The notes under the pieces were generated by a model that worked only from the letters and a program-made list of their open reading frames with translations, did no database searches and was not told the DNA's origin. Shown one piece after another: positions 1 through 17,415 of a stretch of DNA of 17,415 bases. The DNA comes from a virus (lineage: Duplodnaviria > Heunggongvirae > Uroviricota > Caudoviricetes). Location: the IMG/VR virus record IMGVR_UViG_2724679538_000009; one strand, 5' to 3'. The position numbers and the translations under genes are program-made. Position 1 is the stretch's first letter. Each line of letters begins with the position of its first letter.

Positions 1-345
1 TTACATCCGACGTTGCTGCTGTTTTTCTGCGTGCACCCGCTTCACAATCTTATAAATCCATTGCAGCGTCAGATTATATTTCTTCGCTAATTCGGCGTAG
101 TTGCGCCCATCGCACTCGCTATAGATTTGGTAGTCACGCTCCGATGCTCGTCCGGAGATCCCCTTAGGGAAATAAATGCTTTGTCCGCCCCAGTTACGCA
201 TCATTCGGTCGGCAATGGCAAAGCCCACATTTTCTGCCGATGAACTGTCGAGATTGATGCTTTCAATCAGAACTTGCGATGCATGAAAAGCCAGGTCGTT
301 AATGATCTCCGGTGTCCGGGCCATCTCTTTTGATTTTCGTATCAT
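1..345 (-). CDS. Mor-family transcriptional activator (Mu Mor/C-like)
   Basis: Complete 114-aa ORF (ATG at 343-345 on minus strand, GGAG about 8 nt upstream). Contains the GGQSIYFPKG motif matching the Mor GGxQVYIPRG signature and a C-terminal helix-turn-helix-like segment (RNYAELAKKYNLTLQWIYKIVKRV). Transcribed divergently from the lysis/tail genes. Confidence 0.75.
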   Translation of the reverse strand: MIRKSKEMARTPEIINDLAFHASQVLIESINLDSSSAENVGFAIADRMMRNWGGQSIYFPKGISGRASERDYQIYSECDGRNYAELAKKYNLTLQWIYKIVKRVHAEKQQQRRM

Positions 346-10640: not shown

Positions 10641-10645
10641 CGTTT

Positions 10646-10675
10646 AACCCGCCTGATGGCGGGTTTTCTCTTTTT
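10646..10675 (+). terminator. Rho-independent terminator between spike and gp25-like genes
   Basis: aacccgcc-tgat-ggcgggtt is a perfect 8-bp stem with a 4-nt loop, followed by ttctcttttt, 6 nt after the spike stop codon. Confidence 0.65.
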
Positions 10676-10738
10676 AATCAATCAGTTTTCTAAATCGCTT
10701 TAATATCGCCACAGCCCGTTCAGGGCGAAAATACCCTC

Positions 10739-12204: not shown

Positions 12205-12916
12205 ATTGCTGCCACCGCCGCCGCTTGCCAGCGATGAGCGTTTTTCGATTCTGGCAAACATCGCCGCCGAGCGTTTTGCCCAACTCGATCTGACGGCGTT
12301 GATGGTTTATCTGGTCGACCTGGTTGATGCTTCGGCATTACCAGCCCTTGCAGAACAATTTCACGTTCAGGGGCTGGAAGGTTGGTTATTTACCACCGAT
12401 GAGCGGGAGAAGCGCGAGTTAATTAAACAAGCCATTGAACTGCATAAATATAAAGGAACAATTTGGGCGGTACGGCGGGTGCTGGAAATACTTTCCTTAC
12501 CCGGAACTATTTCAGAATGGTTTGAATATGGGGGAAGGGCTTATTTTTTTAAGGTAAATATTACACTAGAGGAAAAAGGATTAAATAAAGATGAATTCAA
12601 TGCACTTATCACATTAATTCATGAATATAAAAATGTTCGTTCAAAGCTGGAAAGCATTGTTATTTGGCTTATTAATCGAAGCCCAATACCAGTTATTGGC
12701 AGCGCCATGCAAGGAGGGGAAGTCATTACAGTATTGCCTCCTGTTGCAGAAAGCCTCAGCCAGTCATCAGGAATATTTTTGGCGACGGGTTATTGTGTGG
12801 AGGAATATATCCAACTACTACCTTATCAACCCGATCGCCTTACACAATCCCAACCGATGAAGGTCGGCACAGGATACTGGAGCACCGAAATTATGTCTGT
12901 ATATCCGGAGGAATAA
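12197..12916 (+). CDS. Tail protein I-like (P2 gpI family)
   Basis: 239 aa from ATG 12197 (GGAG 6 nt upstream; the track start is TTG 12182). [17 protein letters not shown] matches the P2 gpI CHKGTIGAIRRVVEPL region as recalled; C-terminal ...SVYPEE resembles the gpI ...VITVYPG end. C-terminal half is AT-rich. Confidence 0.8.
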
Positions 12917-14496
12917 TGGCAAGTGAATTTTTTACAATATTAACTACTGCAGGCAAAGCCAAAATTGCCTCTGCATTGACGGAGCAAAAACAGATCCGTC
13001 TGCAAACTATGGTAGTTGGCGACGGTAATGGTAAATATATCGAACCGACAGAAAGTCAGACTAAAGTAGTCCATGAGGTCTGGCGTGGTCAGCTCAATAC
13101 ATTAAAAATTGCGCCAGATAATCCGGCCTGGGTTATCGCAGAAGCGATTATTCCCGAACAAGTCGGAGGCTGGTATGTACGCGAAGTTGGGTTACTGGAT
13201 ACCGACGGCACGCTGGTCGCTATTGGTAAATTTCCGGAAACCTATAAGCCACGATTACCTGCGGGGGCCAGTAAGCAAATCGTTATACGCGCGGTCATGG
13301 AAGTCACCAATGCAGACGCGGTGACGCTTTTGATCGACCCTTCAGTCGTTGTGGCAACCAGGGAATATGTCGATGACGCGTTGAAAACACATCAGCAATC
13401 ACGAAATCATCCTGATGCGACGCTAACACAAAAAGGTTTTACACTGCTGAGCAATGCGACTAATAGCGATGATGAAACCAAAGCTGCCACACCAAAAGCG
13501 GTAAAAACGGCATATGACCTGGCAAATAGCAAAGCTGCCACCAGTCATAATCATGCCTGGAATCAGATTACTGGTATCCCTGATGGTACACTGACGCAGA
13601 AAGGAGTCGTTAAACTTAACAACACAACAAATAGCACCAGTACAACGGAAGCTGCAACGCCAAGTGCTGTTAAAGCAGCGATGGACAAGGCTATTGCTGC
13701 GGCACCGTCCAGCCATACCCATGCCTGGGGGCAAATAACAGGTATCCCCGACGGTACGCTGACACAAAAAGGGGTCGTGAAACTTAATAATGCGACCAAC
13801 AGCACCAGTACGACGGAAGCTGCAACGCCGAACGCGGTTAAGGCAGCGATGGATAAGGCTATTGCTGCGGAAAGCTGTCCTGTAGGGATGCCTATACCCT
13901 GGCCATCTGATTCTGTACCTTCAGGCTACGCTCTGATGACTGGTCAGACATTTAATAAAACCTCCTATCCCAAACTGGCAATTGCATATCCATCTGGCGT
14001 TATTCCTGATATGCGCGGATGGATAATTAAAGGAAAACCATCCAGTGGGCGCGCTATATTATCTACTGAACTGGATGGAGTTAAATCACATAACCATACG
14101 GGCAGTATTTCTAGTACCAATTTAGGGACAATAACATCTACCTCTACGGACTTAGGAACAAAAACTACAGCTTCATTTAATCATGGAAGTAGAAATACAA
14201 GCACATCTGGAGAACATACACACCGAATACCAACTGATGGTGCAGAAGGTAAAGATGGACCGTCTTTATGGAACAGCCCCAATTCAGATGAGAACTACAG
14301 AGAACCTACTGAGTCTGCTGGTAGTCATTATCATAGTATTACGATTGGCGCCCATGCACATACAATCGCACTGGGAAGTCATACACATAATATTGTGTTA
14401 GGTACACATAATCACTCAATTATCATCAATAACACTGGCAATACAGAAAATACTGTTAAAAACATTGCATTCAATTATATTGTGAGGCTTGCATGA
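12916..14496 (+). CDS. Tail fibre protein (P2 gpH-like N-terminus, repeat-containing shaft, His-box C-terminal tip)
   Basis: 526 aa from ATG 12916 (GGAGG 6 nt upstream). N-terminal ~200 aa closely track P2 gpH as recalled ([41 protein letters not shown]...[14 protein letters not shown]). Contains 56-aa tandem repeats and C-terminal HxH motifs ([32 protein letters not shown]). Confidence 0.85.
13420..13870 (+). repeat. In-frame tandem direct repeats, 168-bp period (about 2.7 copies) inside the tail fibre gene
   Basis: Units begin at 13420, 13588 and 13756, each encoding TLTQKG(V/F)..[27 protein letters not shown]...[12 protein letters not shown]. Copies 2 and 3 are near-identical at DNA level. 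Confidence 0.75.
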
Positions 14497-15200
14497 ATAC
14501 TTTTACTTTTTCCGATAACGCACAAATTTTATCTGTTTTTAATTTTTCACCAGACACACAAGAATTTATTGGTGAGTCCAATGTATATATAGCACCAAAC
14601 ACTGGACTACCGAATTACTGCACATTAACACCACCACCACAAAAAATTGCAGGTTTTACTTCTATATGGTCAATTAATAAATGGGAACTTATTGAAGATC
14701 ATCGAGGCCAAACTGTTTATAACAAAGTTGATGGCAGCCAGATTATTATTAATAAATTGGGTCAATTGCCTGAAACTGTCACCATCATTTCCCCTACCAG
14801 TACTTTTGAGCGTTGGGATGGCGAAAAATGGCAGCCATCAATTGATGATGCTAAACAGGCGAAATGTGCCGAAATCAAAACATTGCGCGACTCCATCACT
14901 ACCGACTACATCATCATCAACGACAATTACTTCCACAGTGATACAAGCAGCCGCATCCAACAACTCTCACTCACAAAAATGGGAGCGGAGAAAAAAATTC
15001 CGCCAGGTTTAATGTGGAAAACTAAAAATAATGGTCTGACTGAGTTAACCAACGAAATCGCTGCCCAGTTTGAATCCGTCACAATGGATCACGATATACG
15101 CTTGTTTGCCAACGCCCAACGCCATATCGCGGCGGTGGAAGCTCTGGACGATATTCAGTCGGTACTCGACTACGATTATTCAACAGGCTGGCAACCATGA
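14493..15200 (+). CDS. Tail fibre assembly protein (lambda Tfa / P2 gpG family)
   Basis: 235 aa; ATGA overlap with the fibre stop. N-terminal region [32 protein letters not shown]...[13 protein letters not shown] parallels lambda Tfa (EFIGEGDAYIPPHTGLP...PPDIPAGF...WHLVEDHRGKTVY) as recalled. Confidence 0.8.
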
Positions 15201-15652
15201 GTAAAACTACAGTCTGGCTCGCTTGCTATAAAGGGCGAACAGAGCACCGGGTTATTGCGAGACTGGCTGACTGGCTTACACGCAAAATCACTCGCGGCAG
15301 TTATTCCCACTGTGAATTAGCCGTAGCACATGGAGAAAAGAGTTACCTTTGTTACTCCGCCTCTCTGCGCGATCGAGGCGTTCGTGGAAAGATAATGCCT
15401 TTACCGCCAGACAAGTGGGATATGCTGCCGCTCCAGGTCAGCCTTCAGGATGTAGAAGCTTTTTTCCGTAAACATGATGGCAAAAAATACGACTGGCGTG
15501 GAGCCTTAGGAATTATCACCGGCAATAAAGAACAGCGCGATCGCCTGTTTTGTAGCGAATTTTGTGCCGAATTTCTGCAATTAAAAGAAAGTTGGCGCTA
15601 TTCCCCAAACCACTTGTACGCTTTAGTTAACAGTTGGCAATATCAACCATAA
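15197..15652 (+). CDS. Putative permuted papain-fold (YiiX/YaeF C92 / LRAT-like) thiol enzyme
   Basis: 151 aa; ATGA-coupled to the tfa stop. His-containing N-terminal motif (GSYSHCELAVAHG) and C-terminal GKKYDW...RLFCSEF resemble the GxxYDF...YCSEV signature of YiiX-type permuted NlpC/P60 proteins as recalled. No transmembrane segment. Confidence 0.4.
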   Translation: MSKTTVWLACYKGRTEHRVIARLADWLTRKITRGSYSHCELAVAHGEKSYLCYSASLRDRGVRGKIMPLPPDKWDMLPLQVSLQDVEAFFRKHDGKKYDWRGALGIITGNKEQRDRLFCSEFCAEFLQLKESWRYSPNHLYALVNSWQYQP

Positions 15653-15657
15653 ACTAC

Positions 15658-15680
15658 GCCGGGCTTCAAGCCCGGCTTTA
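15658..15680 (+). terminator. Terminator-like hairpin ending the tail operon
   Basis: gccgggc-ttcaa-gcccggc stem-loop followed by ttta, 6 nt after the stop of the 151-aa gene. Confidence 0.5.
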
Positions 15681-15796
15681 ATCAGGCTGTATATTCCATC
15701 ACAAACAAAGCACATGCTTATAAATATTCACAGTAATTATATTTCCATATTAACCATCCACTGAGTGAATATAGAAGAATTTAAATACAATAACTA

Positions 15797-15824
15797 TTGC
15801 ATTGTAAATTACATCAAATATAGT
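15797..15824 (+). promoter_or_regulatory. Candidate sigma70 promoter for the glycosyltransferase-like gene
   Basis: TTGCAT, 16-nt spacer, TATAGT within a 180-bp AT-rich spacer about 40 nt upstream of ATG 15866. The spacer contains the palindrome TGTAA-A-TTACA (15803-15813). Hexamer prediction by eye only. Confidence 0.3.
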
Positions 15825-15865
15825 TCACTACTTATATATTTTGCTAATCGCTACAGGGAAATTAC

Positions 15866-16594
15866 ATGTTTATTGTCTCAGTTCTCAGACAAAGTAAGGA
15901 TTTCACTATTAAACATGCACAATGGCTTCACCAGCAGCTGGATGGGTATAATTCCATTTGCATGACGGATGCTTCAGAAATCAAAGGGGTTCAAACCACT
16001 CCATTACTGTATAATTGGCCAGGATGGTGGGCAAAATTAGAGCTATTTAATCCCGAACATCCTGTTCTCGGGAATAAAGATATACTTTATATTGATATTG
16101 ATACTGTAATCGTCGGTGATATTACACAGTTTACTAAAATGAAAAAAGTAACATTACTGAACGACTTCTCGCAGCATGGTTCCAATGCTGCTCCTGCGAC
16201 TGGAATAATGTTCATTCCTGCGGACGCCAAAAAACTTGTCTGGGAAGAGTTTATGAGATCGCCTGAAACTGAAATAAATTCAACCAGAAAGCCGCCATAT
16301 CATGGGGATCAGGGATTTATCGGCAGAGTATGTCATGACGCTGAAAGATGGCAGGATATTTTTCCAGGACAAATTATCAGTTACAAAGCGAATATAGCGA
16401 CGCCTAAAATGATAGGCTTTAATCCTGACTTACACGATGGTAAAGCAAACGGAGAATTGCCATCGGATGCAAAAATTGTATGTTTTCACGGTTCACCTCG
16501 TCCCTGGAACACAGCTCTCCACTGGGTTCCAGGTTTCAGCATAAAAAACACACTCTGCAGCAAATTTAAACAGCTCAAATATTCTCTTCGGTAA
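15866..16594 (+). CDS. GT-A fold glycosyltransferase, GT8-like (DXD and HxxGxxRPW motifs)
   Basis: 242 aa; AGGGAA Shine-Dalgarno upstream. DILYIDIDTVIVGD matches the GT8 DXD region (LgtC KVLYLDIDVLV as recalled) and VCFHGSPRPWN matches the GT8 C-terminal HxxGxxKPW motif. Markedly AT-rich relative to the tail genes; flanked by terminator hairpins. Confidence 0.5.
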   Translation: MFIVSVLRQSKDFTIKHAQWLHQQLDGYNSICMTDASEIKGVQTTPLLYNWPGWWAKLELFNPEHPVLGNKDILYIDIDTVIVGDITQFTKMKKVTLLNDFSQHGSNAAPATGIMFIPADAKKLVWEEFMRSPETEINSTRKPPYHGDQGFIGRVCHDAERWQDIFPGQIISYKANIATPKMIGFNPDLHDGKANGELPSDAKIVCFHGSPRPWNTALHWVPGFSIKNTLCSKFKQLKYSLR

Positions 16595-16614
16595 AAAACT
16601 TTTTTATTGGAAGG

Positions 16615-16635
16615 CGCCGGGCATCACGCCCGGCG
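16615..16635. terminator. Bidirectional terminator-like hairpin between convergent genes
   Basis: cgccgggc-atcac-gcccggcg is a perfect 8-bp stem with a 5-nt loop; A-run and T-run immediately upstream on the plus strand. The nucleotidyltransferase stop codon lies in the loop; 20 nt downstream of the glycosyltransferase stop. Confidence 0.5.
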
Positions 16636-17415
16636 TATCACTGTTTGATACAACAACCCATCCAGTTCCCTGGCATCTCCGTCCCTGCTGTCTGGTAACA
16701 CTGGTGGAATTTCCCCGTGCGCCAGTTCCGCGCGAATAAATGCATGTAACAATGGACGACGCGGACCATATTCCGCTTCTCCCGCGCGCTGTTTACGTTC
16801 CAGCAGCTCGTCTATTTCTGCGCGTAACGGCGCATCAAGTTCGGTTCCCGTCAGTAACTCAGCAAAGCGCATTGGCGGTACGCCTTTTCCCGCTTCAACC
16901 CAACGCACAGCCAGTAATGGTCGCAGCACGTAAAAGTATTTTTTCAGCCGAACTACGTCGCCCTGCAAATAACCGCGAAAGTTTTTCCGCGCCATCGAAT
17001 AATAATGCCAACGCGCACGCAGCGGAGAAAACCACTTCGGCACCATTGCCTTAAGCGGCGTTATCGTTTCTTCATCTTGTTGATAGACCACCGGAGAATC
17101 CAGCCATTCAATCAGCGTCGGATTAGCGCCTTTCAGTAATCCCAGCGCCTTGCGCCACTCCCAGCCTGAAACATCTAACTCGTCGTCAATAGGCAACTCA
17201 ATAACATCGCGCGGCGCCTCCACCCGCAGATACCATTCCAGCGGGTGAACATACAAAAATCGTACATCGTAGTCGCTGTCGGGAGAGGCAAATCCCCAAC
17301 CGCGACTCCCCGATTCGCAGGCGTACAGCACTTTCACGCCATAGCGACGTTCTATTTCTTTTAATTGCTGCGATACCCGTTCGCGCATCGCAGCACTGAC
17401 TCCATTTATTGGCAT
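16624..17415 (-). CDS. Pol-beta superfamily nucleotidyltransferase-domain protein
   Basis: 263-aa ORF whose ATG is the last three bases of the window. N-terminal ESGSRGWGFASPDSDYDV matches the GS-x(9-13)-DxD nucleotidyltransferase signature; helical C-terminal half. Higher GC than the adjacent cargo gene. Confidence 0.6.
   Translation of the reverse strand: MPINGVSAAMRERVSQQLKEIERRYGVKVLYACESGSRGWGFASPDSDYDVRFLYVHPLEWYLRVEAPRDVIELPIDDELDVSGWEWRKALGLLKGANPTLIEWLDSPVVYQQDEETITPLKAMVPKWFSPLRARWHYYSMARKNFRGYLQGDVVRLKKYFYVLRPLLAVRWVEAGKGVPPMRFAELLTGTELDAPLRAEIDELLERKQRAGEAEYGPRRPLLHAFIRAELAHGEIPPVLPDSRDGDARELDGLLYQTVIRRA

Follow-up and report, generated by a model that had tools for sequence, protein, structure and literature searches.

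A GT8-like glycosyltransferase gene beside the fibre module of a tail-only element in Escherichia fergusonii: a candidate for cell-surface modification

What does a glycosyltransferase do beside the fibre genes of a phage tail that has no head? The question is raised by a 17,415-nucleotide stretch of caudoviricete DNA (IMG/VR record IMGVR_UViG_2724679538_000009), referred to here in its entirety as the window, which carries a headless phage-tail element with a putative glycosyltransferase gene at its fibre-distal end. An earlier note on this DNA had proposed that the interval 15683–16640 holds an acquired, independently transcribed gene whose product could alter lipopolysaccharide (LPS). A single substantial open reading frame (ORF) lies within that interval, and the exact protein that it encodes is annotated in Escherichia fergusonii. 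Our analysis identifies this protein, with high confidence, as a GT-A-fold, GT8-like glycosyltransferase, and sequence comparison indicates that its gene is an old resident of the element. That the enzyme modifies the cell surface is the best-supported hypothesis for its role, and one that we put forward tentatively. The feature in question is:

15866 to 16594, plus strand: GT-A-fold, GT8-like glycosyltransferase of the PmgQ/HdmD family (PHROG 1962), 242 residues, assigned from sequence, profile and model.

Family membership was established with profiles. As a single sequence the protein has no match in Pfam (none at E<0.1), NCBIfam or PADLOC, and a search of the PDB with that sequence returned only noise. 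In PHROGs, residues 1–233 align with positions 1–230 of the 230-position profile phrog_1962, annotated as a glycosyltransferase in the moron category (E 2.9e-98). A tblastn search of phage genomes recovered PmgQ of P1, HdmD of P7 and homologues in SJ46 and RCS47, at 36% identity over 93% of the query, together with closer relatives in the Escherichia phages Chuche and Chlobot and in one Salmonella contig. A large protein database yielded 90 cluster representatives, of which the named ones are all called 'hypothetical protein' except for one UniRef entry, 'Glycosyltransferase'. Across 1.84 billion representatives, HMMER collected 2,187 family members at E<=1e-30 and 4,813 at E<=1e-10. Members are mostly 190–240 residues long, and a small number are fusions with methyltransferases or with MptE-like (Maf/sialyltransferase-type) domains; in uncultured phages, GT8-like and MptE/Maf-like domains are joined in single proteins of 685–750 residues. 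The protein is a member of the already catalogued but uncharacterised PmgQ/PHROG 1962 family and represents phage-borne glycosyltransferase cargo.

Residue conservation, taken from an alignment of 67 homologues, outlines an active site built around K57, D77-x-D79, G147-D-Q-G-F151 and H208-G-x-x-R212-P-W214. Positions K57, D77 and G209 are invariant, and WPGWW (51–55), D79, D148, H208 and P211 are nearly so. The DXD motif reported in the earlier note is conserved as D77-I-D79, with D79 present in at least 90% of the homologues. The HxxGxxRPW motif reported alongside it is correct in its GxxRPW part and wrong in its spacing: the C-terminal motif reads F-H208-G209-S-P-R212-P-W214, in which the G-x-x-[KR]-P-W portion matches the GT8 signature and the histidine stands two residues nearer the glycine than in the GT8 motif HxxGxxKPW (HFLGQTKPW in glycogenin).

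Comparison with structures places the family among GT8 enzymes. The family profile matched only GT8 chains in the PDB, with E values from 9e-7 to 1e-3 (about 1e-6 for Gat1 and glycogenin, 1e-3 for GlyE), and aligned DxD with DAD, GDQGF with GDQGL and GxPRPW with GQTKPW of glycogenin. The protein falls below the threshold of the Pfam GT8 model PF01501, which gave sub-threshold matches for only 11 of the 67 relatives (best E 0.0046). The AlphaFold2 model has a predicted local distance difference test score (pLDDT) of 96.1, and the top structural and profile matches are GT8 throughout, in agreement with the class first proposed. The protein shares with LgtC, WaaJ/WaaO/WaaR, glycogenin, Gat1 and GlyE the GT-A fold, the DxD metal site and a lysine about 20 residues before it, and shares the GDQG loop with glycogenin. 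It differs from them in its N-terminal motif, which is VLRxGGxY instead of the N/D-x-x-Y type, and in consisting of the catalytic core and one helix (242 residues against approximately 280–340). The enzyme is predicted to be cytoplasmic, single-domain, and dependent on metal and nucleotide sugar, with a GT8-type active site. Characterised GT8 enzymes with such a site transfer an alpha-linked hexose with retention of configuration. The predicted C-terminal helix (residues 226–241) is polybasic. Only in the clade found in accessory slots of prophages does this tail reach a net charge of +5 to +9; it is acidic or missing in P1 PmgQ, in the Citrobacter phage phiNP and in a Halomonas homologue.

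We then asked how long the gene has been part of the element. Its accessory position at the fibre-distal end is confirmed by the counterpart in E. coli S10, which is otherwise 88–95% identical and lacks the gene. Similarity to the S10 element ends at 15676 and restarts at 16615, and the two matches overlap on 20 bases of the subject, the single S10 hairpin. With the E. coli element as reference, the glycosyltransferase unit is an exact indel of 958 bp, bounded by a duplicated hairpin. The hairpins and the features around them are:

15197 to 15652, plus strand: YiiX-like protein of the permuted NlpC/P60 fold, 151 residues; upstream neighbour, outside the indel.
15657 to 15676, no strand assigned: left hairpin copy, 20 nt and GC-rich, CGCCGGGCttcaaGCCCGGC, directly 3' of the stop codon of the 151-residue protein gene; identified by direct repeat and folding.
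15677 to 15865, plus strand: AT-rich upstream region of the glycosyltransferase gene, 189 nt, 27% GC; identified by composition and missing from the E. coli S10 element.
15797 to 15824, plus strand: promoter-like block with a -35 element TTGCAT (15797–15802), a 16-nt spacer and a -10 element TATAGT (15819–15824); the best-conserved island in a four-locus alignment, below the threshold of the consensus scan.
15855 to 15859, plus strand: Shine-Dalgarno-like AGGGA, 6 nt ahead of the ATG, from reading the sequence.
16615 to 16635, no strand assigned: right hairpin copy, CGCCGGGCatcacGCCCGGCG, identified by direct repeat and folding.
16624 to 17415, minus strand: RlaP-family nucleotidyltransferase (Pfam PF10127, E 8e-97), convergent downstream neighbour.

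The same slot is occupied by the gene in E. albertii (93% amino acid identity) and in Salmonella (76–79%). In the comparison with E. albertii its synonymous divergence (dS) is 0.33, equal to that of the baseplate J gene (0.33), and the ratio of nonsynonymous to synonymous divergence (dN/dS) is 0.11; in the comparison with Salmonella dN/dS is 0.05–0.07. The ORF is intact in E. fergusonii, in E. albertii and in more than 1000 Salmonella contigs. Because it occupies the same slot, has diverged at the same synonymous rate as a baseplate gene and has a low dN/dS, the gene is an old, selected resident of the element and not a recent acquisition. The description of it as acquired cargo holds for the accessory slot and the precise indel, but not in the sense of recent gain. 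Two copies of the hairpin, 958 nt apart, are present in E. fergusonii and E. albertii, one is present in E. coli and none in the Salmonella loci. The single E. coli copy means that loss by recombination between two repeats fits at least as well as gain, and the gene was probably lost in E. coli. At 80% or more nucleotide identity it is present in 0 of 5,426 complete E. coli genomes, 30 of which carry distant relatives, all annotated 'hypothetical protein'.

Base composition had also been taken as a mark of foreign origin. The glycosyltransferase gene is indeed more AT-rich than the tail genes, with 40.5% GC and a GC content at third codon positions (GC3) of 0.35, against 50.9% GC and GC3 of 0.49–0.58 for the genes from sheath to baseplate. 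The difference is not unique to it, because the fibre gene (GC3 0.37) and the fibre-assembly gene (0.39) share the low GC3; the whole distal module is therefore AT-rich, and not the glycosyltransferase gene alone.

Independent transcription had been proposed on the strength of two flanking terminator hairpins and a candidate promoter. The GC-rich hairpins exist: the segments containing them fold at -16.7 (left) and -22.4 kcal/mol (right), with z-scores of -3.3 and -3.8 against shuffled sequences. They are a direct repeat of one 20-nt sequence, identical at 18 of 20 positions and spaced 958 nt apart. The right hairpin begins 20 nt past the glycosyltransferase stop codon and holds in its loop the stop codon (16624–16626) of the convergent RlaP gene. 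No plus-strand U-tract is present at either hairpin, and a simple terminator scan was passed only by the left hairpin, on the minus strand. Their role as terminators of the glycosyltransferase gene is not supported as originally stated. For the promoter, a consensus sigma-70 scan of the upstream region found no site matching at 9 or more of 12 positions. We also aligned the upstream regions of four orthologous loci, one each from E. fergusonii and E. albertii and two of Salmonella type. The best-conserved island is TTGCA(T/A)-16 nt-TATAGT, followed by a ribosome-binding site kept as (A/C)GGG(A/G), and the remainder is strongly diverged between the Escherichia and Salmonella-type loci. This phylogenetic footprint supports, without proving, a candidate autonomous promoter. 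A test for co-regulation, in which 12-mers (at most one mismatch) shared by this upstream region and the Mor–holin or other intergenic regions were sought, found only one AT-rich chance match.

The element itself is a phage tail with a lysis module. From left to right the window encodes a Mor-family activator (1–345, minus strand), a holin, an SLT transglycosylase, Gp37, the sheath, the tube, a chaperone, the tape measure, homologues of gpU, gpX and gpD, the proteins V, W, J and I, the fibre, the fibre-assembly protein, the 151-residue protein, the glycosyltransferase and the convergent RlaP. The counterpart in E. coli S10, which is 94.7% identical and bounded directly by lysC and yjbD, contains no head, packaging, replication or integration genes. 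The gene set of an R-type tailocin is represented in full, with contractile tail, baseplate, fibre, lysis and regulator. A content of tail and lysis genes only fits an R-type tailocin. The same element lies at the same locus in E. albertii and Salmonella enterica. In Salmonella it has been described as the prophage remnant 'Def4', STM4196-4219 (PMC3591323, PMC5322425), and has been characterised solely as a remnant (PMC5322425). A published STM4200 probe and primer fall inside the fibre gene of the Salmonella locus L105. The window is the E. fergusonii counterpart of this tail-only element in the lysC-yjbD interval, and the host element is a domesticated Mu/P2-like tail-plus-lysis element. The gene for the 151-residue protein follows the fibre-assembly gene in elements with and without the glycosyltransferase.

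Several further observations concern the element. In Def4, a complete gtrABC operon for O-antigen modification is inserted exactly between the baseplate genes V and W (L105, 6652–9487), at the point where the window has an intergenic region of only about 100 bp (10641–10738). The window holds no gtrABC-type genes (GtrA flippase, GtrB bactoprenol glucosyltransferase or GtrC transferase). The fibre gene (12793–14496) is the most divergent part of the element, with approximately 71% identity to E. coli against 95% elsewhere, and has internal repeats at 13481–13870; fibre length ranges from 332 to 608 residues across loci while the glycosyltransferase allele stays constant. In the intergenic region between Mor and holin, at 569–584, there is a LexA-box-like site, CTGTATACACATACAG (within TACTGTATACACATACAGTA). 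It is the sole match to CTGT-N8-ACAG in the window (0.21 expected by chance), recurs with a single change in the S10 element of E. coli, and suggests direct SOS control of a tail element that has no repressor gene. The right end of the island, in both E. fergusonii and E. coli, is formed by RlaP and a slipin (Band_7) gene that lies beyond the window (L009, 11556–12683). This module has no PADLOC match and is degraded in E. albertii to an RlaP remnant of 87 residues.

Homologues of the glycosyltransferase were located in a variety of other settings. In the lambdoid phage Chlobot the gene lies between int and the fibre-assembly gene, in the P2-like phage Chuche at the genome end, in a P2-like E. 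coli prophage in the slot between ogr/portal and gene A, in Klebsiella and Citrobacter at prophage ends, and in a Salmonella Mu-like prophage between two fibre sets. Shimwellia carries an orphan chromosomal homologue with no phage genes nearby, and one plasmid-borne copy lies near an FkbM methyltransferase. The slots taken by the close homologues are accessory ones, in prophages of unrelated types, and the orientation is often convergent to the structural genes. A hexapeptide-repeat acetyltransferase gene adjoins the glycosyltransferase in two independent Salmonella contexts, Def4 (L106, L107 and L110, approximately 14796–15272) and the Mu-like prophage (L014, 8741–9277), and the two genes may form a two-enzyme glycan-modifying pair. 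Some E. albertii strains carry a second AT-rich glycosyltransferase gene downstream (GT4, Glycos_transf_1; L005, 11355–12497, and also L008), which is broken into ORFs of 246 and 120 residues and is probably a pseudogene.

What, then, is the enzyme for? The best-supported hypothesis, which we judge to be a little short of an even chance, is that it modifies the cell surface, specifically LPS, and in this way affects recognition by phages or tailocins. This reading rests on three lines of context: the accessory slots, the clade-specific polybasic helix and the glycan-related cargo nearby. LgtC-type enzymes typically attach peripherally to the inner membrane through polybasic amphipathic helices. 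A conserved promoter of sigma-70 type in front of the gene would drive its expression separately from the tail operon, and the enzyme would dock on the inner membrane through its C-terminal helix. There it would transfer a sugar onto a lipid-linked glycan of the envelope, with the LPS core or an O-unit as the likeliest acceptor, and change a surface structure recognised by LPS-binding phages and tail particles. The outcome would be surface conversion of the carrier cell, which might also shield it from the particles of the element itself or from related phages. As to neighbouring cargo, the gtrABC genes of the Salmonella version belong to an established class of O-antigen modification operon (PMC5322425, PMC7380047). 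Counting genes from the STM4200 anchor, the Salmonella orthologue of the glycosyltransferase (L105, 15290–16018) is probably STM4197. In a Salmonella screen, deletions of STM4197 and of the Def4 gtr gene STM4204 were both classed as 'reduced swarming only' (PMC4219756), a shared class that is a weak lead for a surface role.

A number of observations weigh against a role on LPS. The gene lies outside the waa and rfb clusters, and its product lacks the C-terminal domain of the approximately 330-residue LPS-core GT8 enzymes. Neither the fold nor the sequence tells GT8 enzymes of the LPS type (LgtC) apart from those that act on proteins or other glycans (glycogenin, Gat1), which have slightly the better scores. 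For the C-terminal helix, the hydrophobic moment is no more than moderate (0.26–0.61). Identical glycosyltransferase alleles accompany fibres of 470, 526 and 582 residues in E. albertii, which argues against tight fibre-specific immunity. Elsewhere in the family, P1 (L019, 4144–6702) and the Citrobacter phage phiNP (L018, 6463–7648) pair a PmgQ-type gene with a PmgO-type 'alpha-2,3-sialyltransferase'-like gene, which hints at a phage glycan-building module so far unrecognised. In a Halomonas prophage (L103, 6001–6600), a homologue of 199 residues and 40% identity overlaps the start and stop codons of its neighbours, after the major capsid gene and a 132-residue ORF and before a head-tail connector gene, and suggests virion-associated glycosylation in this branch. 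Homologues in virion structural operons, in the late or early-lytic operons of P1 and in Maf-like fusions point to virion or other glycan targets for part of the family. P1 pmgQ is nonessential and dispensable for lytic growth (PMC10695390). The STM4196-STM4197 intergenic region, beside the probable Salmonella orthologue, has served as an insertion site and is reported to be transcriptionally silent in laboratory media (PMC11018118). In the literature that we found, PmgQ function is covered by essentiality data only, and no Escherichia tailocin at this locus is described.

The position of the gene invites another explanation, in which the acceptor is a protein of the tail particle itself, be it the fibre, the fibre-assembly protein or some other structural component. 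Its glycosylation, comparable to that of mycobacteriophage virions, would alter particle stability, specificity or immunogenicity. In all orthologous elements the gene directly follows those for the fibre, the fibre-assembly protein and the 151-residue protein, and homologues adjoin fibre-assembly genes in several prophages. The translational coupling of the Halomonas homologue between capsid and connector genes points the same way, as does the presence of protein-directed glycogenin and the Skp1-glycan enzyme Gat1 among the best PDB relatives; the P1 homologue was originally named a 'putative morphogenetic function'. Set against this, the gene in prophages mostly lies convergent to the structural operon or apart from it, with a promoter-like block of its own, the orphan chromosomal copy has no phage genes for company, and the copy in the P2-type slot is distant from the fibre genes. 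The polybasic helix is specific to the accessory-slot clade, and fibre genes are intact in the E. coli elements, which have no glycosyltransferase. The reports of virion glycosylation that we found concern mycobacteriophages and a few other phage groups, none of them enterobacterial. On balance we regard modification of the particle as unlikely. We also consider it unlikely, though somewhat less so, that the enzyme acts on some other acceptor, such as a different envelope polymer (enterobacterial common antigen, colanic acid or capsule), a cytoplasmic protein of the host or a small molecule, with the fibre side of the element serving as a permissive insertion site. The methyltransferase and Maf/sialyltransferase-like fusion partners in the wider family indicate multi-step glycan assembly, the plasmid copy has its FkbM methyltransferase, and none of the genomic contexts pins down the acceptor. 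However, the gene recurs together with fibre modules that recognise LPS and with gtr or acetyltransferase cargo, a pattern more specific than chance would give.

It is very improbable that the element carries the gene as a passenger, newly gained or in decay, that does nothing there at present. Its deviant base composition, its absence from the E. coli element and the label 'hypothetical protein' on every annotation examined among its closest homologues would suit a passenger, but dN/dS of 0.05–0.11, a dS equal to that of tail genes, ORFs intact across three host groups, invariant or nearly invariant catalytic residues and a conserved promoter block do not. The measured purifying selection and the orthologous conservation largely refute this explanation. 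Glycosylation of DNA was also considered and is rejected as implausible, the element being headless and having no packaging or base-hypermodification genes. A more specific form of the surface hypothesis makes the glycosyltransferase a dedicated companion of a domesticated tailocin, co-inherited since before the Escherichia–Salmonella split, that would remodel the LPS of the producer against its own particles and against related LPS-binding phages (P1 and Mu relatives). This is speculative, and taken as a whole we think it decidedly unlikely.

Known systems provide useful points of comparison. The LPS-core enzymes WaaJ, WaaO, WaaR and WaaT are approximately 330 residues long and encoded in the waa cluster, whereas the 242-residue enzyme studied here is encoded in a phage-tail element between lysC and yjbD. 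P1 PmgQ and P7 HdmD are the named relatives, alike in the full-length profile match, the 36% identity and the same conserved motifs. P1 PmgQ differs in being part of an operon with a C1-controlled operator and late promoter, PmgO (sialyltransferase-like) and Ppp, and in ending without a polybasic helix (net charge -4), whereas the gene in the window stands alone on its headless tail element. The gtrABC operons of Salmonella and Shigella prophages and of Def4 are likewise accessory surface-glycan genes on phage-derived elements, with a proposed effect on the LPS receptor or antigen. They encode three membrane proteins that act in the periplasm via undecaprenyl-phosphate-glucose, whereas the window encodes a single soluble or peripheral cytoplasmic GT-A enzyme, with no sequence relationship to them, which would act before export. 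TarP, encoded by a Staphylococcus aureus prophage, re-glycosylates wall teichoic acid. Like the window enzyme it is a lone cytoplasmic protein of the GT-A type, and the surface glycopolymer that it alters serves as a phage receptor (10.1101/2023.12.21.572611), but it belongs to a GT2-like family and acts on another polymer in Gram-positive hosts, and the analogy is functional only. The virion glycosyltransferases of mycobacteriophages are phage-borne enzymes possibly acting on structural proteins, which matches the context of the distant Halomonas member. The likeness drawn here is one of context, and the contexts of the window clade are mostly accessory and not structural.

On the usual view, producers of tailocins owe their protection to nothing more than the LPS type that they have, and we know of no R-type tailocin with a linked immunity gene. 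A glycosyltransferase gene kept for so long beside the fibre module of a conserved enterobacterial tail element is a candidate link between the particle and the cell surface. If the enzyme were a dedicated companion of the tailocin, an R-type tailocin would for the first time have an 'immunity' function genetically linked to it, and the P1 PmgQ family would gain a function, also its first. The descriptions of Def4 that we consulted name gtrABC as its only cargo (PMC5322425), and the present analysis adds to it a possible surface-modifying gene, hitherto unrecognised. Since the family comprises approximately 2,200 clusters (E<=1e-30), has no Pfam model and no characterised member, and includes a gene of P1, establishing one function could annotate thousands of phage and prophage genes.

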